The notes beneath the pieces were generated by a model. That model saw only the letters and a list, made by a program, of their open reading frames with translations, was not told the DNA's origin and did no database searches. Shown one piece after another: positions 1,022 through 64,000 of a DNA stretch of 64,000 bases; within the stretch, counting starts at the first letter, position 1, and every line of letters starts with the position of its first letter. The position numbers and the translations under genes were made by a program. This DNA comes from Dictyostelium discoideum (Eukaryota): assembly GCA_000004695.1 (NCBI GenBank), contig CM000152.2, forward strand, positions 5,216,001 to 5,280,000. Reading direction: 5' to 3'.

Positions 1022-1112
<91 letters not shown>

Positions 1113-8802: not shown

Positions 8803-8844
<42 letters not shown>

Positions 8845-8851
8845 AAAAAAA

Positions 8852-9898: not shown

Positions 9899-10168
9899 AT
9901 TATTAACTTTTTTAAACTGTTTTTTTAAAATAAAAATAAATTATTTTTTTAAATAAAATATTTATCTCCAAACAATAAAATTAATAATAAAAATAATAAT
10001 AATAAAAGAATATTGTTGTTTATTTTTTTTTGTAAAAGAAAATTTGTTTTATTTATTTATATGTATGTTTTTTTTTTTTTTTTTTTTAATTTAAAAAAAA
10101 AAAAAAAAAGAATTTAGATTTTATTTATTGTTGATTTTGTTTATATATATATAAATTAATTTAATTTG

Positions 10169-14176: not shown

Positions 14177-14887
14177 ATGTCAAACAATAAAGAAAGTTTA
14201 GAAAGAATTATTAAAGGTATTCAAAATAATCAAATCTTAAAAGTATTTGAAGAATTTTATCATGACGAAATTGTTATGTATGAAAATGGAGATTCAAGCA
14301 ATCGTGTTGGTAAAGCTGCAAATCGTAAAGCTGAAGAATCCTTTGTTAATAATGCAACAATCAATGAAGCAAGGGTATTAAAAACCATAGTCGATGGTGA
14401 TAACACTGCCTATGAAATGTACATGGACTTCACATATGGTGGTCATCCGGTCAAGAAGACACAATGGGCTTTCCAACAATGGTCAAATGGTAAAATTATC
14501 AAAGAAGAGTTTGTAGATGTTAAAAAACCACCAACACCTGAACCATCAAAAAATGTTGAATCAAATCTTCAAGCAATTATCAAAGGTATTCAACAAGGTA
14601 AAATCTTGGAAGTCTTTGAAAAGTATTATCATAATGATGTTATCATGTATGAAAAAGGTGATTCAAGCAATCGTGTTGGTAAAGCTGCAAATCGTAAAGC
14701 TGAAGAGTCCTTTGTTAATAATGCAACAATCAATGAAGCAAAACTATTAAAAGTATTAGTCGATGGTGATAACACTGCATATGAAATGTATATGGACTTC
14801 ACATATGGTGGTCATCCGGTCAAGAAGACTCAATGGGCTGTTCAACAATGGTCAAATGATTTGGTTATTAAAGAAGAATTTTATTGA
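14177..14887 (+). CDS. protein made of two tandem SnoaL/NTF2-like (ketosteroid-isomerase-like) domains
   Basis: Two ~110-aa repeats, 'IIKGIQNNQILKVFEEFYHDEIVMYENGDSSNRVGKAANRKAEESFVNNATINEA..LK..VDGDNTAYEMYMDFTYGGHPVKKTQWAFQQWSNGKIIKEEF'. The pattern fits the SnoaL-like polyketide-cyclase/NTF2 fold. The two halves are also near-identical at nucleotide level (for example 'gattcaagcaatcgtgttggtaaagctgcaaatcgtaaagctgaaga' at about 14291 and again at about 14660). Confidence 0.6.
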   Translation: MSNNKESLERIIKGIQNNQILKVFEEFYHDEIVMYENGDSSNRVGKAANRKAEESFVNNATINEARVLKTIVDGDNTAYEMYMDFTYGGHPVKKTQWAFQQWSNGKIIKEEFVDVKKPPTPEPSKNVESNLQAIIKGIQQGKILEVFEKYYHNDVIMYEKGDSSNRVGKAANRKAEESFVNNATINEAKLLKVLVDGDNTAYEMYMDFTYGGHPVKKTQWAVQQWSNDLVIKEEFY

Positions 14888-39651: not shown

Positions 39652-40429
39652 TTTTTTTTTTTTTTGAATTTATTTTAAGTTTTTTTTTTTTTTTTTGTAT
39701 TTTTTTTTTGGTATTTTTTTTATTTATCTCTTTTTTATTTATCTCTTTTTTATTTATTATCTCTTTTTTATTTATCTCTTTTTTATATTATCTCTTTTTA
39801 AAATTTATCTCTTTTCAAATCAATTTTTTTTTTTTTTTAATTTAAATTTATGAAGAACCAAAAAAAAAAAAAAAATAATAAAAAAAAAATAAAAAAATAA
39901 AAAATTTTTAAAAAAAAAAAAATAAAAAAAAAAAAAATTTGTGTGACGATGGTGGTATCTTTTTTTTTTTATTATCCAGAAATTTTTATTATTTCCATTT
40001 ATGGATTTTTTAAGTAATCCAAATATGTGTTTGGTTTTATTTGAATGATAACACTTTAATAAATCCTTGATCAGAAAATCAATCTATTTAAAAATGATAT
40101 GTATTGCTTTGGTTTTTAATAATTTTTTTTTTTTTTAAGGATTTTTGATCAAGAAAAATATTAAAAATAAAGAAATAAAAAAGCGCCAAACAAACTGAGT
40201 TAGTTTTTTTTTTTATGATAAAATTTATTTTTTAAAATGGATTTGGTTAATTTCTTTAATTCTATTTATTTATTTATTTATTTTTTTTTTTATTTTTTTT
40301 TTTCTTTTTTTTTTTCTTAACATCACAATCACAAATATCATAAATTTTTTTTCTAATTTTTAATTTTTTTTTTCTTAATGATCATAAAAAAAAAATAAAT
40401 AAAGAATTTTAAAAAAATAATGATAGCAT

Positions 40430-41884: not shown

Positions 41885-42025
41885 ATAAATTTTAAATTAT
41901 AACGAAATCATATTTTTCCAGTTTTCAAAACTTGGTCACGAAACAGTACTATTTCTTGACGATTTTTTATTTAATTATTGATGATACATTTATAGTTTTT
42001 ATAATTTTTTTAAAGAATTTATTAT

Positions 42026-45000
42026 TTAATTTTTAAAGATATAGTTTATATGATTTTGAATGATTTTTTCATTAACCATTCCTCCTTCATATGAGTTCAT
42101 TGATTGTAATAATTCTTTAGTTTTCTTTGAAACACCAAATCCATGACCCAAGTTATAAACACCATTGAGTCTATCTAATGAATGGAATGTTTTGAACTTT
42201 ATACATGATAGAATCTTTGATTGATTAATGATATTCTTCCATTGTTCATATTCAACCATTTCACATCCATATTGCTTTTCCAAGAATGAGAATGATGATT
42301 TAATTGATGAAACTTCACTATTTAAACTATAGATATTTAATTGATTTGAAGATGATTTATTCCAACATTTTTCATTTCCAATCATTTTAATTGTATTTAA
42401 ACCTATCCAACCAATTGGTGATGTTAATATGTTTTTATCAATATTTGGATACTTTTTAACTGCATAACATGATTGAATAATTAGTTGGAAGAAATCAGAA
42501 TCATGACCAATACCTGTTTCTTCATGTGAAAATATAATTGGTAGTCTAATTAACATTGATGGAATACCTCTTTTTGCTGCTTCTCTAAATAAATTTTCAA
42601 CAACTACTTTACTTTTCATATAACCACCTGGTAAATTATTAATATTTTCAATTGTTGGTATTACTGTTTCTTCATCAAATTCTTTACAATTTGGTGATTC
42701 AAAGAATACTGATATTGAACTAAATCCTACAATTGGTTTTTGATAATCACCAGTTGTTGAAAGTTTAATCAATTCAATTAAACCACCAATATTTACAACT
42801 TTACTCTCTTCATAATTTGATGCCAAATTAATATCGGCACCTGAATTAATTATTAAATTAATTTGGTTTGAAACAAAACCAAAATCTAATTTTGATAATC
42901 CTAATAATGGTGATGCTAAATTACCAACGATTACTTTAACTTTTGATAATTCAAATTCATTGTGAAAGTGATATAGTTTATGATGTTTCAAATTATTAAT
43001 TATTGCATTGATTGGATTTGGTTCTGATTTTTTATTTCTAATTAAACAATATACAACTGAACAGTTTGGTGATTTAATTAAGTTTGATAATAAATGAACA
43101 CCTAAAAATCCTGTTGCACCAGTTAAAAATACTTTTGAGTCATTTCTAAAATCAATTGGATTCATTTTAATTGCTTGAATTGATTCATCTAATTTCATTT
43201 CATTTCTCCAATATTCTAAACTTGGTGCTGAATCTTTTTTAATAATTTTTTTTGATTTTCCTTTAGTTTCATTTGAATCTAGTTTTTTGATTTGTTCTAA
43301 AATAATTTGAATATTTACTCCAATTGTATTATTTTGTAATTGTTGAAGTGTAATTACATTTGATTTATTTTCTTTATCAATGAAATTCTTTAATTGTACT
43401 GAAGTTAATGAATCTGCTCCATATTCACCTAAACGAATATCTGTGTTGATCTTTGATTGTTCAATTGATAAGAGTTCTGAAATTTTATTCAAAAATTTCA
43501 TTTGGATACTCTCTGAAATACTAATATTTTCACCACCATTATTATCATTATCTTTTTCCTTGATAGAATTTAAAATGAAATCTAATCTTTGGAAAGTTGA
43601 TGTTTCTGATGCGAATTTCTTAATTGAATCATAGTTAAATTTACTAACAATTAAATTTGAATATTTATTTGAATTTTGAAGTTGTAAATCTAATGAACCT
43701 AAAATTATATTTGTTGGAATTGGAATGAAACCTTGATCATCTAACATTTTTGAAACTGAATCATTTCTTGATACGAAACCTGATGATTTAATTGTTCCCC
43801 AATTTGTGCACGTTGATGGTAAACCAATTGATTTACGATATCTTGATAGTGAATCTAATACTAAATTTGCAGAAACATAAGTACATTGGTTGAATGAGCC
43901 AAATAATGATGCAATCGATGATGCCATAACAAATTGTTTTAATTTCCATGATTTCTCAATTGAGATTTCATGTAAATTAATTGCACCCATCGTTTTAGCA
44001 TTATGTGAAATATCTAATGATTCAATATCGATTTCTTCTACTTCTTTAGTTACTTGAGTGAACGCGTAATGGAATATTGAATCAATGTTATCAATATTTG
44101 GATTTTCTAATAAAATTTGATTAATTGATTTTCTCATTTCAATTGAATCACCAACATCTACGATCTTGAAATGGAACTTGGTGTTATTATCCTTTCTTGA
44201 TATTGTTTTATTGATTAATAGTTCTAACTCCCATTTTAATGATGATTTTGATAAAATGATAATGTTTTCAAATGATTCTGTTGGAGGTGAATATTTAATT
44301 AACCATTTTAAGATTTCTAAAATAATACCTGATTGACCTGTAATAATTATATTTTTACCAATTATATTTTTTGTATCAATTTTGAAATCATATTTTAATA
44401 TTGTATGATTCTTTTCATTGTTATCTGATTCAATGAGTTGATTTAATAATCCATCACTACCGATACTACCATTTGAACAACTATGATCTAATACAATTTT
44501 ACCAATATGTTTTCTTTGATTAATATATTCAATTGCTTCTTTGACATTTTCAATCTGGAATGTTGTTATCGGAATTAGTTTCACTTTGTTTTCATTTAAA
44601 GCATTTGAAATAGATTTTAATAATCTTGAAACTACTCTTTTATTAATATGCATAAATTCGATATTATGATAACTCTTGTTAAATTTGAAATTGTTGAAAT
44701 TTAAAAATTCATTGTTATTTAAATGGGTGATTGAGAGATCAATGATTTTACCTCTTTCTTTTAAACATAAAAAGTTTGAATGTGTAAATTCATTTGGTAA
44801 TGTATTTATAATTAAATCTACTCCGTTGAATTTACCAGTTGTACCATAAAGTTGATTTAATTTTGATTTGATTTCATTTACATAGTTTTTATTTCTTGAT
44901 GAATAAATTCCAGTTATGAATGATCCATAATTATCAATTAAATATTGTTCTTTATCTTTTGAACCTACTGTGACGAAAATTGGTGATTTATGACCTTTCC

Positions 45001-48000
45001 ATTTTAATATTTCTAATGTTGCTAAACCAATACCACCTGTTGCTGAGTGAATTAAAATGACTTCATCATCATCGATATTAAAATTACCAATGTTGAACAT
45101 ACCATGAAGACATGTTGAAAAAATGATTGGTAATGACGCTGCTTCAATATGACTAATATTATTTGGTTTATGTGAAACATAAAGTACATCAGTTATAACA
45201 TGAGATGCAGTTGCATCGTGTGATACACCAAAAACATTATCGCCTACTTTAAATTCACAATTTTTATTTTCATCAGATATTCTTGTGATAATACCTGAAA
45301 ATTCGAGACCAAGTGGATTTTTAGATATTGATACATTTTCATCAATAACAACTAAACCACGATAAATTAAATAATCTTTATAATTAATACCTGTTGCTAA
45401 AACTTTGACTTCAATTTCATTCTTTTTTAATTTCTTTGGTTTTGATGCTAATTTATATTCTAAATTTGTTGAATCTAAGAGTGTCATAAAATCATTATCT
45501 TCGAATGAATTTGAATTGAAGTTTGATTTTATATTCTTTTCATTCTTTAATATTTCATAATAAATTGAATTATTTCTAATTATATATTCTCTTTGAATAT
45601 GGTTATTTGAATTTTCAATCAATTGATTAATGATTTTATTTAATAATGATGATATCGATAATTGATTATCAAAATCGATTGAATATAGATTTAAACTTGG
45701 AAATTCATTAAAGTATCTTGATGCACCTATTATTGATGATGATAAATAGTTTTTGATTTGTGAATCAATAGTAATTAATACATGTTTACATGTTAAACTA
45801 TGTTTTAAAAGTTGTTGATTAATTTCAATATATTCCATTGTAATTTGTTTGAAATTATTCATTTCTAATTGTTCCATTGATTTAATAAAGTAAATTATTG
45901 AATCATTTGTTATTGAAGGTAATAGTTGATTAAATTCATTAATATTTGATATTGTTGTTTGTTTGCGATTGGTATGATTATTTGAAATTAATTTCTTAAA
46001 TTCATTTGTATATTTTGAATGTTTTTCACAATAAATGATAATATTATCATTTTTATTGTTTGGAACAACTGTTAATTCATTTGATAATATTGTAGATTTT
46101 TGTGATTGTATTACTTTGTTCGATTTCTGAATTTTGTTCTCATTAAAACCTACACCGATTAAATTATTGATATTAAATCGGATACCAATATCATCTTCAA
46201 TTATTAATAATAATAATCCATTTGAAGAAAGAATATTAAATATTGGTTTGATGATTGTTTCATCATTATTATTATTAATGATAATATCATAGTATGATGG
46301 TTTTAACTGGGTTATATCATTTTTAAAGATTAAACTTGAATCGTGTAAAGTTGGAAGTTTATCATTTGAATTATCAATAATTGTAAATTCTATATCGATT
46401 TCTTGTAAACTATTATCGAAAATTTGATTTAATGCTTCAATGATTTGTTTTGATAGTTCTGAATCTGAAAATGATTGTAAAATTCTAAAAACAATCTTTT
46501 CATTTATTATTGGTTTGATTGTTTGTTTAATAATTTCTGTAACTGTGTTGCTGCTGCCACTGCTGCTAGAAGTTTCATTATTATCAATGGATAAAATATT
46601 AACTAATGAATCTTTACATTGTAAATTATTTGTAAATAGTTCATTTGTAGGATTATTAAGTAATAATTCATCAATCAATGGAAGAGTTGAACGGAATGAT
46701 ATATGTTCTATTTCTAATAACTTTGTACCATCTTCTAATAAAACTAAAACTGATGATTTATAGCTATCTGCTTCCAAGGAGATGAATTTTGCTTGACAAT
46801 AGATATTCTTATATTTTAATTTGTCAGTTGGTATATTTTCAGAATAAACTTTTAAACCTTCAAGTCTTTCAAATACAAACTGGCTTGAATTTGTAATGAA
46901 TCCAGTGATGGCTTGTATACAGTTATCTAATAGCGCTATATTGAAAAATGATTTGTCAAATGTTTGATAAACAGGTTTACCATTGATATCAAAGTTTTCG
47001 TAGTTTATTTGTATTCTTGCAATTGTAAGATCATTGCCAAAGTGAAATTCTTCAATTCCTTGGAAAGTTCCTAAATGAGTGATACCTGATCTTAATTTAG
47101 AGTACTTATAAACTTCTTGTTTGGAAAGGGTAGTAAAATTACATTCTGATAGCAATTGATTTATATTATATTTAGATGAGTGATTATTATTATTATTATT
47201 ATTATTATCTTTTAATGATATAAGTTGAAAGTTACCAGTACATGTTTGAACCCATTGATTTGCTTTATTGTCTTTTATGTTGAATGTAACTCTATAATCA
47301 GTGTTACCTAATTGATAAACGTTGGTTTGTAAAATATGTTTGACATTTTCTTTTAAAACAAATGGTGCTAAAAATTCCAAGTTATTAATTACAATATCTT
47401 TATTTGGGTAAAGTTTCATAATATTATCAGCATATCCAATACCTGGGAAGTAATATTTTCCTTTTACAATATGGTCTTTTAAATATTTGAATGGATTTCT
47501 ATTTATATCGATTATTGATTCATATGATTTGTTATTTGATGAATAGTTAATCATTGATTTACCTAAGTTGTTGAAAACGTTTGGTCCATTTAATCTATAT
47601 TGTTCAAAGTTAATATCAACTTTCCAATAGTATTGTTCATCGAATTGATAGTTTGGTAAAATTATAGTGCTATTGTTTCTAATGGAATTGACATCATCAT
47701 CATTGTGATTGAATTGGCATTTAAAGTTTATATCATAACCTAAACAATAAATTTGTGAAATTGTTGAATGAATTTCATCTAAATCATTGGAGTTCTTTTT
47801 GTTTGTTGATGTTAATACTGAAACTGAATTAAAGTAACTTGATGATTTTGGTATCATTTGTTTTAAATAAAATGATAAACTTGGATGTGGTGAAACTTCA
47901 ATAAATATTAATTCATTACCAAGTTTATTATTTTCAATGTGTTGATATAAATTTGAAATAGTTTGAGAGAATCTGACAGGTTGTATTATATTTTCATAAA

Positions 48001-50453
48001 CATAACTTGAATTGAATGGAGTAGTTTCATGATTAAATAAATTAGTTGTAACTGTTGAAAATGTTGGAATTGTTGATTGTCTTGATGGTATTTCTAATGG
48101 TAAAATTTCATTTTTGGTTGAGTTTTGGCTACTTGTGTGGAATGATGATAATGAACCTAAAAATGCGCAAAAGATATTATTTTCTTTTAAGTCTAATGAT
48201 ATCTCTTTTAAAATATTTTCATTACCTGCAATTACAATTGATGTTGGTGAATTATAGCATGCAACTTCAATTGTTGGATATTTATTTGAATAAAGTTCAA
48301 TAAATTCTGAATGACTGATATTGACTGATAACATTTTACCACATCCATTTGTATTATTTTGAGAAATTGATCTGTGGTAAATTAATTTACAAACTGTTTG
48401 GAAATCTACCATACCTGAACAATATGATGTTGCTATTTCACCTAAACTATGACCAACAATGAATGATACATTGATACCCCAATGTTTGTATAGTTCAAAT
48501 AATGATATTTGTAACATTAATATCGATGGTTGAGCGATTATTGGTTGATGGATTGATATAATGTCATCATCTTTAATTGATCTTAATTTATCTAAAACTG
48601 AGTATCCATAGTATTTACTTAACTCTTTATTGAATTTGTCCATCGATGATCTGAATATTGGTTCACATTCATAAAGTTGTTGAGCCATTTTATTCCATTG
48701 TGAACCTTGACCTCCGAAAACAATAACAATCAATGGTTGATTTCTTTTAATTGTAATATTTGAGGATTTGTCATTGCTTGTTTTAAAGTACTTGTTTTTA
48801 GTTTTTAATTGATCCCAATTACTTGAAATTAAAACTGATCTTTGATATAGTTTCTTTGATTTTGAATAAATTTGATTCTTAACAAACTCTTTGAATGAAT
48901 TTGTAGAAAGATTATTATCATTTATTATTAAGTCTTCATAATTTTTTAATGATTTTACTGAATTGGCTGAAAATGGTATTAAAAATATTTGTTGTTGCGA
49001 TTCAATTGGATAACTAGGGTTATTACCATTTAGACTGATTGAGTGTTCAATAAATTGTGATAAAATTAAACAACAATTTGAGCCAGTTACACCAAAGTTA
49101 TTAATAACCATTGATACTGGTTTTTCATTAATATTTGTAAATGGTATTGCTTCTGTTACAACTTTAATATTCCAATCTTTAAAGTTAATCTTTGGATTTG
49201 GTTGATCAAAATTAACATTTGGTGCATAATGTTTATTTTTAAACATTAAACAACATTTGATTAATGATGCAACACCTAATATTAATATTAATATTTATAA
49301 AAAAAAGAGTTAAAAATTAATATATATATTTTTTTTTTATATGGTTTATAAATGGTTATAGCTTACCACTTGCAGCTTCACAATGACCAATATTAGATTT
49401 GAGTGATCCAATGAGTAATGGTTTAGATGGTGTTGATGTTGTTGATGAATTTAGAGCCATTGATACACCTTCTACTTCAATTGGATCACCTGTTGGTGTT
49501 CCTGTACCATGACATTCTACGAAACTAATATCTGATGCTTTCATATTTGCACTTTTCAATGCTAATTTGATATTATCAGATTGTGATTGTTTGGATGGTG
49601 AATAAAAGTTTGATTTATCATTTAAACCACCTCCATCGACATTTGAACTAAATGAATTAATTACACAATAAATATTATTACCATCTCTAATTGCGTCTGA
49701 TAATGGTTTTAAAATTACAATACCACAACTCTCTGCACGAATGTAACCATCTGCTTCTGAATCAAATGGTTTACATTTACCTTTTTTACTTAACATATTT
49801 AAAAATGAAAATGATTTTGAAACGTATGGATCAAGTAATAAACTGGCACCACCCACAATTGATAGATTTGAAGTACCATTTTGAATTGATTGAAAACCCA
49901 TTGTAATTGAATTCAATGATGAAGAACATGCTGTATCAATTGTCATTGATGGACCTCTGATATCATATGAAAATGATAATCTATTTGAAATGGTATGAAG
50001 AACATTTGATGCGAAATAATTTTCAGATGTTTCATTAAAGTCTCTATTTGTTGTTGAATAATCTAATGTTGAGCAACCAATGAAACAAGATGTATTTGAA
50101 CCTCTAATATCGATTGGATCGATGAATGCATCTTCTAATGCTTCCCATGTACACTTTAATAGTAATCTTGTTTGTGGATCCATTAGGGGTACTTCTGATG
50201 GATTGATTGCGAAATGAACTGGATCGAAATCACTCCATTCTTTTAATGGTAATAATCCACCAAATTTATTATTAACTTCACCGAGTAAATTGATATTGTC
50301 ACTCCATCTTTCTGATGTTTCAACAATACCACTGAATCCATTCTTTAAATTATTCCATAAATGTGAAACACTACCATTATTAATTGATTCTTTACCTTGT
50401 GGAATTCTAAATCCAATACCTACAATGGCAATTTCTTTATTTCCAAATTCCAT
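42026..50453 (-). CDS. type I iterative polyketide synthase, copy A (2778 aa); complement(42026..49275, 49367..50453); KS-AT-DH-linker-ER-KR-ACP-R
   Basis: KS: Cys '[13 protein letters not shown]' (about 49930) plus '[12 protein letters not shown]' and 'GHCEAASG'. A 91-nt intron (donor GTAAGC at 49366..49361, acceptor 'ttag' at 49279..49276, phase 1) lies just before '[19 protein letters not shown]'. AT: 'GQGSQW' and 'GHSLGE' (about 48440). DH: 'HxxxGxxxxP' as '[15 protein letters not shown]' (about 47460). ER (MDR): '[15 protein letters not shown]' (about 45035). KR: '[17 protein letters not shown]' (about 44335). ACP: '[14 protein letters not shown]' (about 43410). C-terminal reductase: '[18 protein letters not shown]' (about 43115) with about 390 aa beyond it. 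There is no obvious SAM motif in the about 600-aa DH-ER spacer. Confidence 0.9.
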
Positions 50454-50996
50454 TTTCTTTTAATACACTAAAAACATTGATTCCAATAGTTGCTGATTAC
50501 ATAACGAAGGGAATGAGAGTGGACAATTAATTTTTAATCTTTTTATTTAAAAATATGGTGCTTTTTTGTTTTGTAAGGAATGTTAGAAATTATTACTATT
50601 TATTTATTTATTTTTATTTATATTTTAATATTATTACCATAAACACTTGTGTAAATAAATACATACATATAAATTATTTTTGTTAATTTTTTAAAAAGAA
50701 AAAAAAAAATTTTAAAAAAAAAAATTTAAAAAAAAAATGAAAAAAGAAAAAAAGAAAAAAATTATTAATAAAAAAAAAAAAAAAAAATAGAAAAAATATT
50801 ATTTAATAATAATTTAGTGGTGGTTTAAAACAATATATTTAATTTTATACTATATGATTGTTTAAAACAATTTGGAAATTATATTCTTTAATTTTTGGTT
50901 AATTTTTTTTTTTTTTTTTTTATCTTATTTTTTTTTTTTTTATAATTATTCTAATTAATTTAATATTATGATTTAAAAATAAAAAATTAATATTTG

Positions 50997-52600: not shown

Positions 52601-52802
52601 ATGATACAATTATCAATCAATAATCATATCTTAGTTAAACTAATTAATTTTTATAATAATTCATAATATTTGTAAATATTAAATTAAAAAAAAAAAAAAA
52701 AAAAAAAATAATTTAAAAATAAATATGGATAATAAAAATTTAGGTGGTGTAAAAAAGGTGCTTTGGATTTTAAGAAAAATGAAAAAACTAAGATTTGTTT
52801 AT

Positions 52803-55800
52803 TTAATTTTTAAAAATATAGTTTATATGATTTTGAATCATTTTTTCATTGACCATTCCTCCTTCATATGAGTTCATTGATTGTAATAATTCTTTAGTTT
52901 TCTTTGAAACTCCAAATCCATGACCCAAGTTATAAATGTTATATAAATCATCTAATGAATGGAATGTTTTTAATTTTATACATGATAGAATCTTTGATTG
53001 ATTAATGATATTCTTCCATTGTTCATATTCAACCATTTCACATCCATATTGCTTTTCCAAGAATGAGAATGAAGGGTTCATTGCTGAAACTTCACTATTT
53101 AAACTATAGATATTTAATTGATTTGAAGATGATTTATTCCAACATTTTTCATTTCCAATCATTTTAATTGTATTTAAACCTATCCAACCAATTGGTGATG
53201 TTAATATGTTTTTATCAATTTTTGGATACTTTTTAACTGCATAACATGATTGAATGATTAACTGCAAGAAATCAGAATCATGACCAATACCTGTTTCTTC
53301 ATGTGAGAATATAATTGGTGGTCTAATTAACATTGATGGAATACCTCTTTTTGCTGCTTCTCTAAATAAATTTTCAACAACTACTTTACTTTTCATATAA
53401 CCACCTGGTAAATTATTAATATTTTCAATTGTTGGTATTACTGTTTCTTCATCAAATTCTTTACAATTTGGTGCATTAAAGAATACTGATATTGAACTAA
53501 ATCCTACGATTGGTTTTTGATAATCACCAGTTGTTGAAAGTTTAATTAATTCAATGAAACCACCAATATTTACAACTTTACTCTCTTCATAATTTGATGC
53601 CAAATTAATATCGGCACCTGAATTAATTATTAAATTGATTTGATTTGAAATATAATCAAAATCTAATTTTGATAATCCTAATAATGGTGATGCTAAATTA
53701 CCAACTATAACTTTAACTTTTGATAATTCAAATTCATTGTGAAGTTGATATAGTTTATGATGTTTCAAATTATTAATTATTGCATTGATTGGATTTGATT
53801 CTGATTTTTTATTTCTAATTAAACAATATACAACTGAACAATTTGGTGATTTAATTAAGTTTGATAATAAATGAACACCTAAAAATCCTGTTGCGCCTGT
53901 TAAAAATACTTTTGAATCATTTCTAAAATCAATTGGATTCATTTTAATTGCTTGAATTGATTCATCTAATTTCATTTCATTTCTCCAATATTCTAAAGTT
54001 GGTGCTGAATCTTTTTTAATAATATATTTTGATTTTCCTTTAGTTTCATTTGAATCTAGTTTTTTGATTTGTTCTAAAATAATTTGAATATTTACTCCAA
54101 TTGTATTATTTTGTAATTGTTGAAGTGTAATTACATTTGATTTATTTTCTTTATCAATGAAATTCTTTAGTTGTACTGAAGTTAATGAATCTGCTCCATA
54201 ATCACTTAAACGAATATCTGTGTTGATCTTTGATTGTTCAATTGATAAGAGTTCTGAAATTTTATATAAAAATTTCATTTGGATACTTTCTGATATACTA
54301 ATATTTTCACCACCATTACTGTCATTATCTTTTTCTTTGATTGAATTTAAAATGAAATCTAATTTTTGGAAAGTTGATGTTTCTGATGCGAATTTCTTAA
54401 TTGAATCATAGTTAAATTTACTAACAATTAAATTTGAGTATTTATTTGAATTTTGAAGTTGTAAATCTAATGAACCTAAAATTATATTTGTTGGAATTGG
54501 AATGAAACCTTGATCATCTAACATTTTTGAAACTGAATCATTTCTTGATACGAAACCTGATGATTTAATTGTTCCCCAATTTGTGCATGTTGATGGTAAA
54601 CCAATTGATTTACGATATCTTGATAATGAATCTAATACTAAATTTGCAGAAACATAACTACATTGGTTGAATGAGCCAAATAATGATGCAATCGATGATG
54701 CCATAACAAATTGTTTTAATTTCCATGATTTCTCAATTGAAATTTCATGTAAATTAATTGCACCCATCGTTTTAGCATTATGTGAAATATTTAATGATTC
54801 AATATCGATTTCTTCTACTTCTTTAGTTACTTGAGTGAATGCATAATGGAATATTGAATCAATGTTATCAATGGTTGGATTTTCTAATAAAATTTGATTA
54901 ATTGATTTTCTCATTTCAATTGGATCACCAACATCCACACTATTGAAATGGAATTTAGTGTTATTATCCTTTCTTGATATTGTTTTATTGATTAATAGTT
55001 CTAACTCCCATTTTAATGATGATTTTGATAAAATGATAATGTTTTCAAGTGATCCTGTTGGAGGTTTTGAAGGTGAATATTTAATTAGCCATTTTAAGAT
55101 TTCTAAAATAATACCTGATTGACCTGTAATAATTATATTTTTACCAATTGTATTTATTGTATCGATATTAAAATCATATTTTAATATTGTGTGATTCTTT
55201 TCATTGTTATCTGATTCAATGAGTTGATTTAATAATCCATCACTACCGATACTACCATTTGAACAACTATGATCTAATACAATTTTACCAATATGTTTTC
55301 TTTGATTAATATATTCAATTGCTTCTTTGACATCTTCAATCTGGAATGTTGTTATTGGAATTAGTTTTAATTTATTTTCATTTAAAGCATTTGAAATGGA
55401 TTTTAATAATCTTGAAACTACTTTTTTATTAATATGCATAAATTCAATATTATGATAACTCTTGTTGAATTTGAAATTGTTGAAATTTAAAAATTCATTA
55501 TTATTTAAATGGGTGATTGAGAGATCAATGATTTTACCTCTTTCTTTTAAACATAAAAAGTTTGAATGTGTAAATTCATTTGGTAATGTATTTATAATTA
55601 AATCTACTCCGTTGAATTTACCAGTTGTACCATAAAGTTGATTTAATTTTGATTTGATTTCATTGACATAGTTTTTATTTCTTGATGAGTAAATTCCAGT
55701 TATGAATGATCCATAATTATCAATTAAATATTGTTCTTTATCTTTTGAACCTACTGTGACGAAAACTGGTGATTTATGACCTTTCCATTTTAGTATTTCC

Positions 55801-58800
55801 AATGCTGCTAAACCAATACCACCTGTTGCTGAGTGAATTAAAATTACTTCATCATCATCGATATTAAAATTACCAATGTTGAACATACCATGAAGACATG
55901 TTGAAAAAATGATTGGTAATGATGCTGCTTCAATATGACTAATATTATTCGGTTTATGTGAAATCCAAAATGCATCAGTTATAACATGAGATGCAGTTGA
56001 ATCGTGTGATACACCAAATACATTATCGCCTACTTTAAATTCACAATTTTGATTTTCATCAGATATTCTTGTGATAATACCTGAAAATTCGAGACCAAGT
56101 GGATTTTTAGATATTGATATATTTTCATCAATAATGACTAAACCACGATAAATTAAATAATCTTTATAATTAATACCTGTTGCTAAAACTTTGACTTCAA
56201 TTTCATTCTTTTTTAATTTCTTTGGTTTTGATGCTAATTTATATTCTAAATTTGTTGAATCTAAGAGTGTCATAAAATCATTATCTTCGAATGAATTTGA
56301 ATTGAAGTTTGATTTTATATTCTTTTCATTCTTTAATATTTCATAATAAATTGAATTATTTCTAATTATATATTCTCTTTGAATATGGTTATTTGAATTT
56401 TCAATCAATTGATTAATGATTTTATTTAATAATGATGATACTGATAATTGATTATCAAAATCGATTGAATATAGATTTAAACTTGGAAATTCATTAAAGT
56501 ATCTTGCTGTACCTATTATTGATGATGATAAATAGTTTTTGATTTGTGAATCAATAGTAATTAATACATGTTTACATGTTAAACTATGTTTTAAAAGTTG
56601 TTGATTAATTTCAATATATTCCATTGTAATTTGTTTGAAATTATTCATTTCTAATTGTTCCATTGATTTAATAAAGTAAATTATTGAATCATTTGTTATT
56701 GAAGGTAATAGTTGATTAAATTCATTACTATTCGATATTATTTGCTTGGAATTGGTATGATTATTTGAAATTAATTTCATAAATTCATTTGTATATTTTG
56801 AATGTTTTTCACAATAAATGATAATATTATCATTTTTATTGTTTGGAACAACTGTTAATTCATTTGATAATATTGTTGATTTTTGTGATTGTATTACTTT
56901 ATTTGAATTTTGAATTTTGTTTTCATTAAAACCTACATTGATTAAATTATTGATATTAAATTGAATACCAATATCATCTCCAACTATTAATAATAGTCCA
57001 TTTGAAGAAAGAATATTAAATATTGATTTGATGATTGTTTCATCATCACCATCATTATTATTATTAATGATAATATCATAGTATGATGGTTTTAACTGGG
57101 TTATATCATTTTTAAAGATTAAACTTGAATCGTGTAAAGTTGGAAGTTTATCATTTGAATTATCAATGATTGTAAATTCAATATCGATTTCTTGTAAACT
57201 ATTATCATCGAAAATTTGATTTAATGCTCCAATGATTTGTTTTGATAATTCTAAATCTGAAAATGATTGTAAAATTCTAAAAATAATTTTTTCATTAATA
57301 ATTGGTTTGATTGTTTGTTTAATAATTTCTGTAACTGTATTGCTGCTGCTGCTGCTAAAAGTTTGATTATTATCAATGGATAAAATATTAACTAATGAAT
57401 CTTTACATTGTAAGTTATTTGTAAATAATTCAGTTGTAGGATTATTAATTAATAATTCATCAATCAATGGAAGAGTTGAATGGAATGATAAATGTTCTAT
57501 TTCCAATAACTTTGTACCATCTTCTAATAAAACTAAAACTGATGATATATAGCTATCTGATTCCAAGGAGATGAATTTTGATTGACAATAGATATTTTTA
57601 TATTTTAATTTGTCAGTTGGTATATTTTCAGAATAAACTTTTAAACCTTCAAGTCTTTCAAATACAAACTGGCTTGAATTTGTAATGAATCCAATAATGG
57701 CTTGTGCGCAATTATCTAATAGCGCTGTATTGAAAAATGATTTGTCAAATGTTTGATAAACAGGTTTACCATTGATATCAAAGTTTTCGTAGTTTATTTG
57801 TATTCTTGCAATTGTAAGATCATTGCCAAAGTGAAATTCTTCAATTCCTTGGAAAGTTCCTAAATGAGTGATACCTGATCTTAATTTAATGTACTTGTAT
57901 GCATCTTGTTTTGAAAGAGTTGTAAAATAACATTCTGATAGTAATTGATTTATATCATATTTTGATGAGTTATGATCTTTTAATGATATAAGTTGAAAGT
58001 TACCAGTACATGTTTGAACCCATTGATTTGTTTTATTATCTTTTATGTTGAATGTGACTCTATAATCAGTGTTACCTAATTGATAAACGTTGGTTTGTAA
58101 AGTATGTTTGACATTTTCTTTTAAAACAAATGGTGCTAAAAATTCCAAGTTATTAATTACAATATCTTGATTTGGGTAAAGTTTCATAATATTATCAGCA
58201 TATCCAATACCTGGGAAGTAATATTTTCCTTTTACAATATGGTCTTTTAAATATTTGAATGGATTTCTATTTATATCGATTATTGATTCATATGATTTGT
58301 TATTTGATGAATAGTTAATCATTGATTTACCTAAGTTGTTGAAAACGTTTGGTCCATTTAATCTATATTGTTCAAAGTTAATATCAACTTTCCAATAGTG
58401 TTGTTCGTCGAATTGATAGTTTGGTAAACTGATATTGACCTTGCTGTTTCTAATGGAACTGACATCATCATTGTGATTGAATTGACACTTGAAGTTTACA
58501 TCATAACCTAAACAATAAATTTGTGAAATTGTTGAATGAACTTCATCTAAATCATTGGAGTTTTTTTTGTTTGTTGATGTTAATACTGAAACTGAATTAA
58601 AGTAACTTGATGATTTTGGTATCATTTGTTTTAAATAAAATGATAAACTTGGATGTGGTGAAACTTCAATAAATATTAATTCATTACCAAGTTTATTATT
58701 TTCAATGTGTTGATATAAATTTGAAATAGTTTGAGAGAATCTGACAGGTTGTATTATATTTTCATAAACATAACTTGAATTGAATGGAGTAGTTTCATGA

Positions 58801-61315
58801 TTAAATAAATTGGTTGTAACTGTTGAAAATGTTGGAATTGTTGATTGTCTTGATGGTATATCTAATGGTAAAATTTCATTTTTAGTTGAATGTTGACTAC
58901 TTGTGTGGAATGATGATAATGAACCTAAAAATGCACAAAAGATATTATTTTCTTTTAAATCTAATGATATCTCTTTTAAAATATTTTCATTACCTGCAAT
59001 TACAATTGATGTTGGTGAATTATAACATGCAACTTCAATTGTTGGATATTTATTTGAATAAAGTTCAATAAATTCTGAATGACTGATATTGACTGATAAC
59101 ATTTTACCACAACCGTTTGTATTATTTTGAGAAATTGATCTGTGGTAAATTAATTTGCAAACTGTTTGGAAATCTACCATACCTGAACAATATGATGTTG
59201 CGATTTCACCTAAACTATGACCAACAATGAATGATACATTGATACCCCAATGTTTGTATAGTTCAAATAATGATATTTGTAACATTAATATTGATGGTTG
59301 AGCGATTATTGGTTGATGTATTGATATAATATCATCATCTTTAATTGATCTTAATTTATCTAAAACTGAGTATCCATAGTATTTACTTAACTCTTTATTG
59401 AATTTATCCATCGATGATCGGAATATTGGTTCACATTCATAAAGTTGTTGAGCCATTTTATTCCATTGTGAACCTTGACCTCCGAAAACAATAACAACTA
59501 ATGGTTGATTTCTTTTAATAGTAATATTTGAGGATTTGTCATTATTTGTTTTAAAGTACTTGTTTTTAGTTTTTAATTGATCCCAATTAATTGAAATTAA
59601 AACTGATCTTTGATATAATTTCTTTGATTTTGAGTAAATTTGATTCTTAACAAACTCTTTGAATGAATTTGTAGAAAGATTATTATCATTTATTATTAAG
59701 TCTTCATAATTTTTTAATGATTTTACTGAATTGGCTGAAAATGGTATTAAAAATCTTTGTTGTTGTTGTGATTCAATTGGATAACTAGGGTTATTACCAT
59801 TTTGATTGATTGTTCAATAAACTGTGATAAAACTAAACAACAATTTGAACCAGTTACACCAAAGTTATTAATAACCATTGATACTGGTTTTTCATTAATA
59901 TTTGTAAATGGTATTGCTTCTGTTACAACTTTAATATTCCAATCTTTAAAGTTAATCTTTGGATTTGGTTGATCAAAATTAACATTTGGTGCATAATGTT
60001 TATTTTTAAACATTAAACAACATTTGATTAATGATCCAACACCTGAAATTAATATTTATAAAATAAAAAAAAAGTTAGAATTAATATTTTTGGTTTTTTT
60101 TATTTTATTTTATAAATGGTTATAACTTACCACTTGCAGCTTCACTATGACCAATATTAGATTTGAGTGATCCAATGAGTAATGGTTTAGATGGTGTTGA
60201 TGTTTTTGATGAATTTAGAGCCATTGATATGCCTTCTACTTCAATTGGGTCACCTGTTGGTGTTCCTGTACCATGACATTCTACGAAACTAATATCTGAT
60301 GCTTTCATATTTGCACTTTTCAATGCTAATTTGATATTATCAGATTGTGATTGTTTGGATGGTGAATAAAAGTTTGATTTATCATTTAAACCACCTCCAT
60401 CGACATTTGAACTAAATGAATTAATTACACAATAAATATTATTACCATCTCTAATTGCGTCTGATAATGGTTTTAAAATTACAATACCACAACTCTCTGC
60501 ACGAATGTAACCATCTGCTTCTGAATCAAATGGTTTACATTTACCTTTTTTACTTAGCATATTTAAAAATGAAAATGATTTTGAAATGTATGGATCTATA
60601 TAAATAAATGTATATAATAATTAAAAAAAAAAGAAAAAGAAAATTGAAGAATAAAAATAAAATAATAAATGTTTAAATTCTGAATTAACATACCAAGTAA
60701 TAAACTGACACCACCCACAATTGATAGATTTGAAGTACCATTTTGAATTGATTGAAAACCCATTGCAATTGAATTCAATGATGAAGAACATGCTGTATCA
60801 ATTGTCATTGATGGACCTCTGATATCATATGAAAATGATAATCTATTTGAAATGGTATGAAGAACATTTGATGCGAAATAATTTTCAGATGTTTCATTAA
60901 AGTCTCTATTTGTTGTTGAATAATCTAATGTTGAGCAACCAATGAAACAAGATGTATTTGAACCTCTAATATCGATTGGATCGATGAATGCATCTTCTAA
61001 TGCTTCCCATGTACACTTTAATAGTAATCTTGTTTGTGGATCCATTAGGGGTACTTCTGATGGATTGATTGCGAAATGAACTGGATCGAAATCACTCCAT
61101 TCTTTTAATGGTAATAATCCACCAAATTTATTATTAACTTCACCGAGTAAATTGATATTGTCACTCCATCTTTCTGATGTTTCAACAATACCACTGAATC
61201 CATTCTTTAAATTATTCCATAAATGTGAAACACTACCATTATTAATTGATTCTTTACCTTGTGGAATTCTAAATCCAATACCTACAATCGCAATTTCTTT
61301 ATTTTTAAATTCCAT
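52803..61315 (-). pseudogene. type I PKS copy B: near-identical paralog of copy A, 3 exons with a frameshifting 4-nt deletion in exon 3. Exons about 60694..61315 and 60130..60595; exon 3 is the two fragments 59812..60042 and 52803..59811, broken by the frameshift at 59811/59812
   Basis: Line-by-line, the sequence matches copy A with 0-4 differences per 60 nt (offset about 10.8 kb). Same domain motifs (KS 'GHSEAASG', AT 'GHSLGE', R '[10 protein letters not shown]'). Relative to A it has (i) an extra 98-nt intron 60596..60693 (GTATGT...tatatag) splitting 'LLL|D|PY' in the KS domain; (ii) the shared KS-C-terminal intron 60043..60129; (iii) a 4-nt deletion at about 59811/59812 (A 'GAACACTCAATCAGTCTAAATGG' vs B 'GAACAATCAATCAAAATGG', minus strand). 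This puts '[10 protein letters not shown]' into a frame that stops after '[18 protein letters not shown]'. The remaining 2217-codon ORF (52803..59456 and open up to about 59811) is in another frame. No plausible intron rescues it. The pseudogene call assumes the sequence is correct. Confidence 0.7.
60596..60693 (-). other. copy-B-specific phase-1 intron within the KS domain (absent from copy A)
   Basis: B has 98 extra AT-rich nt that begin GTATGTTAATTC and end TTTATATAG exactly between codons that are contiguous in A ('TTACTTG|ATCCATAC'). Confidence 0.75.
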
Positions 61316-61932
61316 TTTTTTTTTTTTTTTTTTTTTTTAGTACACCAAAAATAAAAATAAAATAAAAAAAAATAAAACAATTTATACCATTTAAAAATAT
61401 TACTATTTTGAAGGACCAAAGTGAGAAATGAAAACTTTGCTCTTGATAGTTATGATTACATTCCAAAGGGGGCTGATTATTAATTAATTTTAAATCTTTT
61501 GGTTATAAAAAAAAAAAAATAAAATTGAGAATTTTTAAAAAAAAAAAATTAAAAAAGAAAATAAAAAAAAATTAAAAAAAAAAATTAAAAAATCTCCAAA
61601 AATATCTTATTACCTAATTATCATCGGGAAAAAAAAAAGTTGATTAGAAACAAAAATTATTTTAAATTTTTATTGGAGCCTGTGGTTTTTGCAAGATATT
61701 TTAAATAACACTTTGAAACCAAAAGTTGTAATTAGTAAAAATAAAAAAAAAAAAAATAGAAGATTATATTTGGGCAAATAAAAAAAAAAATTTTATGGTA
61801 TTAAATTAAATATTTAATTTAGCCATGAGATTTAAATAATTTAAGATTTATTTTTTACACTTTGGGATTTTTTTTTATTTTTTTATTTCCGGAACTCTTT
61901 TAATTAAGGATGTTGTAGGGAATTTTCAATAA

Positions 61933-61993
61933 AATTTCACTACAGTAGCGTAGTGAATTTTATTATTTAATTTCACTACAGTAGCGTAGTGAA
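61933..61993. repeat. tandem direct repeat of a 23-bp GC-containing unit 'tttcactacagtagcgtagtgaa' (2 copies, 14-bp spacer)
   Basis: Directly visible. It lies between the PKS-B 5' region and the retroelement fragment. Function unknown. Confidence 0.8.
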
Positions 61994-62420
61994 AAAAAAA
62001 AATCACTGACCCTAAATTTTTTTTTTTTTCAAAAAACAAATAAAGTTTATTAAATTATTATCTTTTATTTGATTATTAGTTCTATTTAAGTTTTTTTATT
62101 TTTTTTTTTTTATTTTATTTTTTTTTTTTTTTATTTTATTTTTTTTTTTTTTTTTTGCGCCAAAATTTTTTTTTTTTTTCCCCAACAAAACTTTTTTTTT
62201 TTTTTTTTTTTTTTTTATTTTCATTTTCCCAAAATGAAACAAGATAAATTATTTAAAATTTATTGAAGATAATAATTTTGAAAATACTAAACATAAAAAT
62301 TATAAATTTTTACATGATGAGTAAATATTTTTCCTTACCATAACACAATCATTTTTTAAATTCTGACCAATAAAAAACAGAAACAGAAAAGAAAAATTAT
62401 TTAGAATTGAAAAAAAAGTC

Positions 62421-64000
62421 ATGAATTGTGGCGGAGATAGAAATATATCAAAAGAAGTGTGTTTAGAAGTAATTAATGATTATAGAATGGTATCACTCTG
62501 GGAAGAAATGCATAAAGGTCATATAGGAAGAGATGCAACCTATGGGAACTACAAGACTAAATATTATAATATGGGATTGTATTCTTTTGTATCTGATGCA
62601 GTAGATACGTGTGACATTTGCCAACGAAATAGAATAAAAGGTTTGGTATCAATCATTTTTTATATGATGTTTTGTAACTTTTATATTAAAACTCTGTGAA
62701 AGTATGGCACTGCGATAATGGACGTGAATTTAAAAACAAAGTCCAAAAAGAATTCCTAAAACTTTTTCCAGGCTCCAAGTCAGCACATGGAGCTCCTCGT
62801 ACACCAACAACTCAAGGTATGGTAGAAAGATTGAATCGAACTATCAAGGAGAGGATCTCAAAATTAAAACAACAAGAGTATGATATTGTGAACAATATAA
62901 ATTATCGATATGTTTATTAATTAATCATTTATAAATAAATTTTAGTTTTCTTGATGGTACTTCTAGGTCTCTTTCTGAACTATTAAAACAAGCTTTGTAT
63001 GATTACAATAATACAAAAACAAGAACAATTAAAATGACACCATCTCAAGCTGTTGGTATTGTACCTTTGTTTATTAATGTGCAATCAGAACAAGACTCTC
63101 AATCAATTGGTGTTTCAGATGTTTCAAAAGAAGAAATAACAGCTATTATTCTTGAAAATCTCACAAGTTACCAAAATCAATGGAATTCAAAACCACCAAA
63201 GGGATTGAAAGTTGGTGATACTGTACTCTTTCTAGAAATTAAAAAAAATAATGTAAGTAATTAAAACATAAAGATTAATAATATATGAAACAGTAATAAT
63301 TAACAAATTTTATATTTAATTCTAATAGAAAATATTGATTTTGTGTAAAATTCATAAGGTAATACAGGAAGACACTAAACAACTTTATAAACTTGAATTT
63401 TTGGAAGATGGAATCAATAGCCTTCAAAAAAAAGGTTTATACTCTGGTTTTGTAGGAGGTAACAAGTTGGTTCTTTATAAACAATCAACAGTTGATATTT
63501 TTAGAACATCGCCAAACATACAAAAAGATATTGATTCTTTTACTTCTGGTCTTTATTTAAATAATGATGGGAAAGTTATTGAATTTCTGGTTCAGTTTAT
63601 TAAAAATCTTGGTAAGGATTTATCCAATTTCAACTTGCATCAATTGGTAACACAAAATGATCCATTTAGGGTTTTGGAAGATGCTCTTAACAATCCATCA
63701 AATATTCCACCTATCATTAACGATAATCCATTTCAACACAAACTCAATAATGAAATGGAACAAGAAGAAATACTCCCATTTTTAAATAATAATCCAACAG
63801 CGCCAAATTTAATGAATTGTTTGAGAAAGGATATGAATTTAAAAGAAATAGTACCACCAATACCTCAAGTGCAAATAATACCATCATATACTATACCACA
63901 ATCTGGTAGTGGTATAGTAACAACTGTTAAACGTCTCAGAGGCCGTCCTCATAAGATACCAATTGTTAATAAACCTCCTTTAAAATCACATTCTAAACCA
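62421..64000 (+). mobile_element. degenerate, 5'-truncated Ty3/gypsy-type LTR-retrotransposon pol fragment (integrase zinc finger, DDE core remnant, C-terminal region); continues beyond the window
   Basis: 'HKGHIGRDATYGNY...CDICQRNRIKG' is the integrase HHCC zinc-binding motif. 'WHCDNGREFKN...HGAPRTPTTQGMVERLNRTIKE' is the rve-core DDE region (second D and E). The ORF is broken into at least 3 frames (62421..62699, 62696..62920, 62995..63264, then an open frame to 64000 ending '...KRLRGRPHKIPIV', AT-hook-like). Only about 20 aa separate the zinc finger from the 'HCDNGREF' motif, implying an internal deletion. No RT/RNase H or LTR lies upstream within 61340..62420. Confidence 0.65.

Follow-up and report, generated by a model that had tools for sequence, protein, structure and literature searches.

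The original 1999 paper on Tdd-4 by Wells reportedly described a '3.4-kb deleted version' of this element, 145-bp repeats, six introns and 15 SPXX repeats. Tdd-4 is a cut-and-paste element of the Ginger2/TDD DNA transposons, which encode an integrase-like transposase (Bao, Kapitonov & Jurka 2010, PMC2836005), and published Tdd-4 is 3,839 bp long with TGTNR termini and a 5-bp TSD (PMC2836005). Its Repbase/GenBank reference is AAFI02000006.1:352615-356458. Ginger2/TDD elements of animals and fungi combine an H2C2 + DDE integrase-like transposase without GPY/F with TGTNR termini and TIRs of 45-300 bp (PMC2836005). Their core shows only about 30% protein identity to that of Tdd (PMC2836005), and they generate 4-bp TSDs, whereas Tdd elements generate 5-bp TSDs. 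Gypsy/Ty3 integrases (Skipper, DGLT-A) resemble the Tdd-4 system in their HHCC finger, DD35E fold and TG..CA element ends; unlike Gypsy/Ty3 elements, Tdd-4 has no LTRs, gag, protease, RT or RNase H, is DNA-mediated, and possesses TIRs and spliceosomal introns.

We analyzed a window of 64,000 nucleotides from Dictyostelium discoideum AX4 chromosome 6, and its final 2,090 bp (61911-64000, + strand) proved to be the left part of a Tdd-4 element. It is practically certain that this segment represents the left 60% of a copy of the ~3.4-kb deleted, non-autonomous subfamily, carrying a disabled gene and having no demonstrable role in PKS duplication. What the first-pass annotation had recorded near PKS-B as an "integrase remnant" and a 23-bp repeat are two parts of one ordinary mobile element that is already known. 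The window copy differs in nothing of substance from the known 3.4-kb Tdd-4 form, with which it shares the TGTTG terminus, a TIR about 146 bp long in its core and about 310 bp when extended, the GT-AG intron positions and the SPXX tail in the full gene product.

For comparison, we used five TE-rich loci (L001-L005), of which L001 and L002 contain full-length Tdd-4 copies and L003 and L004 deleted ones, together with the TDD4 (XP_629668) and TDD5 reference proteins published by Bao et al. 2010 (PMC2836005, Additional file 1). The window protein matched published TDD4 at 48/48 and 105/107 residues and was 94-100% identical to Tdd-4 copies; a 90% relative, DDB_G0282919, is named 'Tdd-4' in dictyBase-derived tables. 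Identity to TDD5 (corresponding to P0005) reached only 38-58%, and Tdd-5 was rejected as the identity of the window element, being far more distant than TDD4. Complete, colinear sister copies were present in L003 (4436-7861; 3,426 bp) and L004 (5920-9354; 3,435 bp), with 99.4-99.7% DNA identity. Both bear TIRs and 5-bp TSDs (CAAAT and GCTAA, respectively), as does the full-length copy in L002 with its TSD TCATC. The left end of the window copy comprises the following features:

61906..61910, + strand: AAGGA, 5 bp abutting the left terminus, the expected TSD copy as predicted from the 5-bp TSDs of sister copies
61911..61927, + strand: left terminus TGTTGTAGGGAATTTTC (5'-TG end, TGTNR pattern), from which copies align exactly while their flanks differ
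61911..62056, + strand: left TIR core of 146 bp, starting TGTTG, an inverted match to sister right ends
61933..61957, + strand: repeat unit 1 within the TIR, AATTTCACTACAGTAGCGTAGTGAA, whose palindromic stem is 8 bp long; putative transposase binding site
61969..61993, + strand: repeat unit 2 within the TIR, an exact copy of unit 1 placed 36 bp further downstream; putative transposase binding site
62157..62164, - strand: E2F-type consensus site TTTGGCGC (GCGCCAAA on the + strand), roughly 70 bp 5' of the native ATG

The terminal 17-mer is present at every Tdd-4 end, and Tdd-5 ends preserve its first 16 nt almost unchanged. Against the reverse-complemented right ends of L002, L003 and L004, the left TIR core was identical at 142-144 of 146-147 aligned positions; weaker inverted similarity continues beyond it to about 62220, giving about 82% overall over 310-326 bp. 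The completeness of the window insertion is extrapolated from the sister copies, with the right end and the second TSD expected beyond 64000. Since window position 64000 corresponds to L004 position 8004 and that element ends at 9354, about 1.35 kb more is expected, which would hold the SPXX repeat block, the last intron, the last exon and the right TIR. The predicted right terminus would be an inverted TGTTGTAGGG ~1.35 kb past the window, in a TIR ending ...CCCTACAACA and followed by AAGGA, and the predicted pre-insertion (empty) site would read ...TTAATTAAGGA....

The transposase gene of the window copy reads outward from this end as follows:

62235..62320, + strand: exon 1 remnant with the native start codon at 62235 (MKQDK...), from alignment with L001-L004 and the N-termini of full-length proteins
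62321..62380, + strand: intron 1 (GTAAAT...CAG) as in full-length gene models, deduced from the P0022 and P0023 N-termini (...FLHDE/NRKEK...)
62381..62640, + strand: exon 2, which encodes the HHCC (H2C2) zinc finger, by Pfam match and gene model
62641..62702, + strand: hybrid 'intron' of 62 nt, the 5' part of native intron 2 plus the tail of exon 4, with the deletion junction at 62695/62696
62703..62877, + strand: exon encoding two DDE-triad residues, the second Asp (in CDNGREF) and the Glu (in MVERLNR)
62878..62945, + strand: GT..AG intron of 68 nt; spliced product 100% identical to DDB_G0292352
62946..63252, + strand: exon for the C-terminal part of the integrase-like core
63253..63328, + strand: GT..AG intron of 76 nt
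63329..64000, + strand: exon for the C-terminal region, running off the end of the window

Two lesions separate this gene from the full-length copies. Compared with L001 and L002, exon 1 has lost 17 nt after 62248, producing a frameshift and an early stop, and the same 17-nt deletion is common to L003 and L004. The DDB_G0292352 model begins at the internal ATG 62421. Further downstream, 388 bp are missing relative to the full-length copies (junction ...AAAACTCT/GTGAAAG), which removes the region of the first catalytic Asp; the internal deletion proposed in the first-pass annotation is therefore genuine. Its frameshifts need correcting: the changes of frame between 62640 and 63330 are three GT..AG introns (62, 68 and 76 nt), and the true frameshift lies further upstream, at the 17-nt deletion. 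The hybrid intron is, according to the gene-model prediction, spliced via a cryptic AG. The spliced window product equals residues 1-458 of DDB_G0292352 with 100% identity over the full query length, and the introns are common to all Tdd-4 copies.

The protein junction created by the 388-bp deletion, NRIKVWHCDNG, also occurs in five other genes, making six genes in total at different loci. The shared deletion marks a propagated ~3.4-kb non-autonomous Tdd-4 subfamily, and adding the missing 388 bp to the 3,435 bp of the L004 copy gives about 3.82 kb, against 3,839 bp for published Tdd-4. In the window protein, Pfam Integrase_H2C2 scored above the cutoff (E 6e-8), while rve_3 (E 4e-5) and rve matches were partial and below it; the full gene product (P0001) contains 16 SPXX motifs. 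The Tdd-4 transposase resembles retroviral or gypsy integrase in having an HHCC finger and a DDE core, followed at the C-terminus by a tail of SPXX repeats. The window copy retains the cis-acting left end next to a gene disabled twice, by the 17-nt frameshift and by the 388-bp deletion. With both lesions in the gene, it would be incapable of cutting and pasting itself, and full-length Tdd-4 transposase would be needed in trans for its movement.

Within the TIR, the exact 25-bp unit occurs twice, each time as the palindrome TTCACTAC-agtagc-GTAGTGAA, at a period of 36 bp with an 11-bp spacer. The duplicated unit first described as a 23-bp tandem repeat at 61933..61993 is hence real, although it is 25 bp long and not arranged head-to-tail; Tandem Repeats Finder did not report the pair. 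The 23-bp core matched the window twice against 0.00 expected from shuffles, and no further copy was found in the window when up to 3 mismatches were allowed. Outside the window, where the earlier annotation had recommended looking for other copies, the unit recurred in Tdd-4 ends of L002 and L005. It sits at nt 23-47 and 59-83 of each Tdd-4 TIR; L002 carries a pair at its left end and an inverted pair at its right, the nested Tdd-4 copy in L005 likewise has a pair at either end, and another L005 end has three.

Because the unit was found inverted in every Tdd-4 right end examined, it is probably a transposase binding site. The most likely role of the paired units is as putative binding sites that would place the enzyme on the conserved TG terminus. 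In IR/DR ends (Sleeping Beauty, Tc3) and subterminal-repeat ends (Ac, En/Spm, P), each inverted end carries binding-type motifs at fixed distances from the terminus. Tdd-4 likewise presents two direct motifs per inverted end, a likeness by analogy only; unlike those systems, its transposase family is unrelated, each unit is palindromic, and binding here is putative. Tdd-5 has the same layout, with an integrase-like transposase containing introns, and its TIR measures about 290 bp (L005 4200-4487 versus 12000-11716). Its terminal 16 nt are nearly alike, TGTT(G/C)TAGGGAATTTT, and corresponding positions of its TIR contain the partially similar motifs TTTC.C...AGTGAATTTT and CACT...AGTG. The Tdd-5 TIR lacks the exact 25-bp unit, and the Tdd-5 copy examined has no GCGCCAAA site.

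The 'gcgcca' motif reported near 62158 is present as GCGCCA at 62157-62162, where it forms part of GCGCCAAA. Three matches to the E2F-type site occurred in the window against 0.16 expected. The site is kept at the equivalent place in 7/7 Tdd-4 5' ends and is absent from right ends. Tdd-4 is repressed by RblA, its expression being de-repressed, 25-fold up, in rblA-null cells (PMC3386910). A consensus E2F site at this distance from the ATG in all seven 5' ends would directly explain that published repression, and GCGCCAAA most likely acts in the transposase gene promoter as an element responsive to E2F/RblA.

The unit module (two, rarely three, per end) and the conservation of the E2F site in all seven 5' ends may be absent from the literature examined. 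Abundant deleted copies would supply a protein with the HHCC finger and C-terminal DNA-binding region that lacks the first catalytic Asp, and this product could act as a dominant transposition inhibitor. A broader proposal, tentative and rather doubtful as a whole, is that the Tdd-4 units and Tdd-5 motifs constitute a candidate Ginger2/TDD binding module, that the conserved E2F site would account for RblA repression and link transposition to S phase, and that the deleted-copy protein would serve as an inhibitor. Studies of end recognition by integrase-like DNA transposons, and of their control by RblA/E2F, gain concrete, cheap targets in these conserved TIR units and this E2F site.

The element's proximity to a duplicated gene had suggested that it could mark the duplication or a rearrangement breakpoint, or supply a promoter to PKS-B. 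Its left end lies 595 bp upstream of the PKS-B ATG (61315), and the distance of about 1.1 kb given in the first-pass annotation agrees with the interval from that codon to the predicted ATG at 62421. The repeat and the 'gcgcca' motif, which that annotation had placed between element and gene, both fall inside the element, since it starts at 61911. Similarity between PKS-A and PKS-B extends over 42013-50461 versus 52790-61323 and ends at about 61323-61350, 8-35 nt upstream of the ATG, leaving a gap of about 560-590 bp to the element. A role for the element in causing or marking the PKS-A/PKS-B breakpoint, or as the PKS-B promoter, is very unlikely: it draws on this proximity and on the unrelated upstream regions of the two genes, but the similarity stops short of the element, neither Tdd-4 nor another shared repeat was found at the other duplication limits (42013, 50461 and 52790), and the transposase gene is transcribed away from PKS-B. 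The similarity between the two genes is almost exactly confined to coding sequence, and gene conversion or older flanks fit better than a TE-mediated junction.

In the AX4 records examined, DDB_G0292352 is annotated as 'hypothetical protein / Integrase catalytic domain-containing protein' rather than as a transposon gene, and the gene ID had no mention in the literature searched, including the supplementary files checked. This ordinary protein-coding annotation, a reading frame that stays open through three introns, and the dictyBase label 'transposase/transposition inhibitor' for the Tdd-5 gene could suggest a domesticated, integrase-derived host gene with a cellular function, or a truncated transposition inhibitor, whose introns were acquired in the host. 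Such domestication is extremely unlikely, however, as DDB_G0292352 lies inside an intact transposon end, at least six near-identical copies with the same deletion occupy unrelated loci, each sister with its own TSD, the introns are those of the whole Tdd-4 family, and the native exon 1 is frameshifted. Any inhibitor role of the truncated product would belong to the transposon family, not to a host gene. By the standard of a GIN1-like domesticated gene, which is single-copy and without transposon ends, the locus fails, being multi-copy and retaining a transposon end.

The view of the locus as a decayed gypsy-type LTR retrotransposon (Skipper/DGLT-A-like) reduced to a frameshifted integrase fragment appeals to the Pfam Integrase_H2C2 and partial rve/rve_3 matches and to the absence of RT and RNase H nearby, but has next to no chance of being correct, given that the frame changes are GT-AG introns yielding one ORF, the left boundary is a TIR and not an LTR, with an inverted partner closing the sister copies within 5-bp TSDs, identity to published TDD4 is 98-100%, the gypsy-type pol integrase in L001 aligns in the finger alone, at just 29% across 62 aa (E 1.6e-4), and the GPY/F motif found in gypsy integrases is missing from Ginger2/TDD transposases (PMC2836005). 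The TIR and TSD structure of the sister copies refutes the gypsy/LTR class. The first-pass annotation had correctly seen a defective mobile element encoding an HHCC finger and part of a DDE core, and had mistaken its class: it is a Tdd-4 cut-and-paste DNA transposon. The integrase similarity is real and the repeat belongs to a repeat family, so neither of the outcomes named there as refuting occurred. Because the Tdd-4 transposase is itself integrase-like, RT, RNase H and LTRs are not to be expected, and the complete sister elements, 3.4 kb in total, contain no RT or RNase H. DDB_G0292352 is accordingly best annotated as the gene of a defective Tdd-4 copy and should be taken neither for a host gene nor for a relic of gypsy or the scar of a rearrangement, and a Dictyostelium integrase without RT or LTR should be tested first as Tdd-4 or Tdd-5.

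Other parts of the window had no repeats in common with the five comparison loci. No RNA genes emerged from an Rfam search of 61000-64000 at E ≤ 1, and scanning the entire window for tRNAs gave none. In a search for orthologues at a strict threshold, the PKS-B exon 1 protein gave a single match, from D. citrinum, at 57%.

Beside PKS-B, one of the two tandem polyketide synthase genes in the window, lies a non-autonomous copy of the DNA transposon Tdd-4 that has suffered an internal deletion; the element belongs to a known family already present in the reference genome. It lies in AT-rich DNA (~22% G+C across the 64 kb), arranged as follows.

61315, minus strand: ATG of the PKS-B gene
Within 61300-64000, between the PKS-B start and the integrase-like coding region: strongly AT-rich spacer
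From ~62235, plus strand: coding region with integrase motifs
62421-62640, 62703-62877, 62946-63252 and 63329-64000, plus strand: exons joined in the spliced gene

Joining these exons takes out three introns with GT..AG borders, 62, 68 and 76 nt long (G+C 13-23%, versus 30-38% in the exons). The frame changes that had earlier been read as frameshifts in an integrase correspond to these introns, and splicing restores a single frame of 458 open codons that continues past the window end. The integrase similarity itself was borne out, with a Pfam match to Integrase_H2C2 above the cutoff (E 6e-8) and partial matches to rve_3 and rve. Over its full length, the spliced product is 100% identical to residues 1-458 of DDB_G0292352 (XP_629717, Q54DC4) from D. 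discoideum AX4, which places the window on AX4 chromosome 6.

The left boundary of the element was defined by comparison with five loci (L001-L005) from new D. discoideum assemblies. Its left terminus is TGTTGTAGGGAATTTTC at window 61911, exactly where alignability of all copies starts; sequence upstream of it is unrelated among copies, and the same 17-mer recurs, inverted, at the distal end of every complete copy. Three copies are flanked by 5-bp direct repeats.

L002, 4722-10790: full-length copy, flanks TCATC/TCATC
L003, 4436-7861: 3,426-bp copy, flanks CAAAT/CAAAT
L004, 5920-9354: 3,435-bp copy, flanks GCTAA/GCTAA

These sister copies are terminal inverted repeat (TIR) elements with 5-bp target-site duplications (TSDs), in agreement with published Tdd-4. 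Across 146-147 aligned positions, the 146 bp at the left end of the window copy share 142-144 with the reverse complement of the L002, L003 and L004 right ends, and weaker inverted similarity (~82%) extends to ~62220. Window 61911-64000 is colinear with the L003 and L004 copies at 99.4-99.7% identity; extrapolating from them, the window copy would be expected to end ~1.35 kb beyond the window.

According to Bao, Kapitonov and Jurka (2010, PMC2836005), TDD-4 and TDD-5 of D. discoideum are DNA transposons that move by cut-and-paste, encode a transposase resembling gypsy integrases, generate 5-bp TSDs and have the TGTNR termini of the Ginger2 group to which they belong; the two are 3,839 and 3,783 bp long, respectively, and their TIRs measure 260 and 297 bp. 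Against the TDD4 reference protein (XP_629668; taken, like TDD5, from Additional file 1 of PMC2836005), the window product is identical at 48/48 and 105/107 residues flanking a missing block. At this site, between CQRNRIK and VWHCDNG, paralogues of 693-715 aa carry ~104 additional residues. An expression table from 2025 gives the name 'Tdd-4' (DDB_G0282919_TE) to a 90% relative, DDB_G0282919. That the open frame represents a domesticated host gene is unlikely, since the window copy still has a transposon end and belongs to a set of near-identical copies with TSDs of their own. Sequence identity rules out Tdd-5: its counterpart, the TDD5-type protein P0005, is just 38-58% identical to the window product. 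The gypsy-type assignment of the first-pass annotation is wrong, because the TIR/TSD structure, the introns and the TDD4 match all identify a Tdd-4 DNA transposon; a genuine gypsy-type pol in L001 matches the window protein weakly (29% over 62 aa).

The proposed internal deletion proved correct: relative to the full-length L002 copy, 388 bp are missing. The lost segment starts midway in native intron 2, takes in exon 3 and intron 3, and stops shortly before the end of exon 4, with the junction ...AAAACTCT|GTGAAAG at 62695/62696. Of the catalytic triad, the first Asp went with its segment (…LVYDLTS…CIDSFTKF…), leaving the second Asp, in CDNGREF, and the Glu, in MVERLNR. The first 'intron' of the gene model (62641-62702) is therefore a hybrid, with a cryptic AG as its predicted acceptor. 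L003 and L004 also share a second lesion with the window copy, the loss of 17 nt after 62248, which is absent from the full-length L001 and L002 copies; it frameshifts native exon 1 (ATG 62235), which accounts for the annotated ORF starting internally, at Met 62421. Six predicted proteins contain the junction peptide NRIKVWHCDNG, two from another strain and four from AX4 (DDB_G0292352, DDB_G0292954, DDB_G0276645 and DDB_G0282083, apparently on three different AX4 chromosomes), which indicates that the deleted form is a propagated non-autonomous subfamily and no product of local decay. Wells, in 1999, reportedly recovered Tdd-4 versions of both 3.8 kb and 3.4 kb and described TG..CA ends together with six introns and a run of 15 SPXX repeats. 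In the present data, 3,435 + 388 gives ~3.82 kb, full-length copies have introns at matching places, and the full DDB_G0292352 product (P0001) contains 16 SPXX motifs.

Within the TIR there are exactly two copies of AATTTCACTACAGTAGCGTAGTGAA (61933-61957 and 61969-61993), lying at nt 23-47 and 59-83 from the element terminus. The reported 23-bp repeat is thus real (2 exact matches versus 0.00 expected in 64 kb, and no third copy in the window with up to 3 mismatches), yet its two copies are directly repeated with a spacer between them, at a period of 36 bp, and form no head-to-tail tandem; Tandem Repeats Finder did not report the two 25-bp units. Each unit contains a perfect 8-bp palindrome, TTCACTAC/GTAGTGAA, flanking a 6-nt centre, and the terminal 90 nt, folded as single-stranded DNA, form two hairpins (-16 kcal/mol, z = -5.9). 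Further genomic copies were found in the Tdd-4 ends of L002-L005: the 22-bp core is present twice at the left end and twice, inverted, at the right end in L002, both units occur in the L003 and L004 right ends, and a nested Tdd-4 in L005 has two units at either end. Another L005 end (1232-1350) has three units, still with a 36-bp period, so unit number in the TIR is variable; the diverged L001 copy keeps the units with substitutions. Tdd-5 ends share the terminal 16 nt nearly unchanged, but at matching positions carry the related motifs TTTC.C…AGTGAATTTT and CACT…AGTG instead of the exact 25-bp unit. On the simplest reading, the terminal 16-17 nt would be the cleavage-site end of Tdd-4 and the paired units candidate transposase binding sites.

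The repeat and a 'gcgcca' motif had been placed between the element and PKS-B; both instead lie inside Tdd-4. The motif is part of GCGCCAAA at 62157-62164, the reverse complement of TTTGGCGC, which fits the canonical E2F site TTTSSCGC. In either orientation it has 3 matches in the window versus 0.16 expected. The site, ~70 bp upstream of the native ATG, is found at the equivalent position in 7/7 available Tdd-4 5' ends and in none of the right ends examined. In an rblA disruptant, 19 Tdd-4 elements were collectively 25-fold up-regulated, and a consensus E2F element was mentioned solely for Tdd-5 (Strasser et al. 2012, PMC3386910). Given the conserved site and this up-regulation, it is reasonable to infer that TTTGGCGC has a predicted function in an E2F/RblA-controlled transposase promoter. 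The other two matches lie at 63800-63807, within the Tdd-4 coding region, where sister copies preserve it as coding sequence, and at 40183-40190, ~1.8 kb past the PKS-A stop codon.

The idea that the element marks a breakpoint of the PKS duplication found no support. The aligned stretches of PKS-A (42013-50461) and PKS-B (52790-61323) are 95.8-99% identical, and their similarity ends 8-35 nt upstream of the ATGs, with unrelated regions further upstream. The Tdd-4 end lies 595 bp from the PKS-B ATG, ~560-590 bp outside that limit, with the transposase gene and PKS-B in divergent orientation; elsewhere in the window there is no Tdd-4 or other repeat common to L001-L005. Any link between the element and the duplication is unsupported. 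The first-pass annotation was largely accurate as observation and mistaken in element class.

The PKS similarity covers almost exactly the coding sequence, extending ~16 nt beyond the stop codon and 8-35 nt upstream of the ATG, and the flanks are unrelated, which suggests gene conversion that homogenised the coding sequence, or an old duplication with quickly diverging AT-rich flanks. PKS-B has a 97-nt GT..AG intron at 60597-60693 (GTATGTTAAT...TATATAG), and at the corresponding PKS-A site (~49832) the coding sequence is uninterrupted (...TTATTACTTG|ATCCATAC...) and 99% identical around it, implying recent gain in PKS-B or precise loss in PKS-A. At PKS-B ~59765-59805 (PKS-A ~49000-49040), B lacks 4 nt and has 3 extra nt close by, and the long ORF changes frame at this point (ORF segments: A 2, B 4); PKS-B may be a pseudogene, require an extra small intron or contain a sequence error.

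Other repeats were also observed. L005 4200-12000 is a Tdd-5 copy with ~290-bp TIRs (86% identical); it and Tdd-4 have nearly matching terminal 16-nt sequences, although their transposases are only ~40% identical. Nested within it, at 8300-10041, is a 1.7-kb, internally deleted Tdd-4. A ~757-bp TIR element with ends CACAGCAAAG...CTTCGCTGTG and a TA duplication at one site, absent from the window, occurs in copies 98-99% identical.

L002, 5112-5867 and 7299-8056: nested in a Tdd-4 copy
L005, 4609-5368, 6068-6826 and 10677-11435: nested in a Tdd-5 copy

Short tandem repeats are found in its interior, as are segments resembling tRNA (e.g. GGTCGGGGGATCGAATCCC), and it may represent a small non-autonomous transposon of Tc1/mariner type, such as DDT-S. 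In the window, two tandem copies of a 307-bp segment lie at 14206-14512 and 14575-14881 (period 369 bp, 87% identity), and G+C is highest at 1001-3000 (33-39%, versus the ~22% average).
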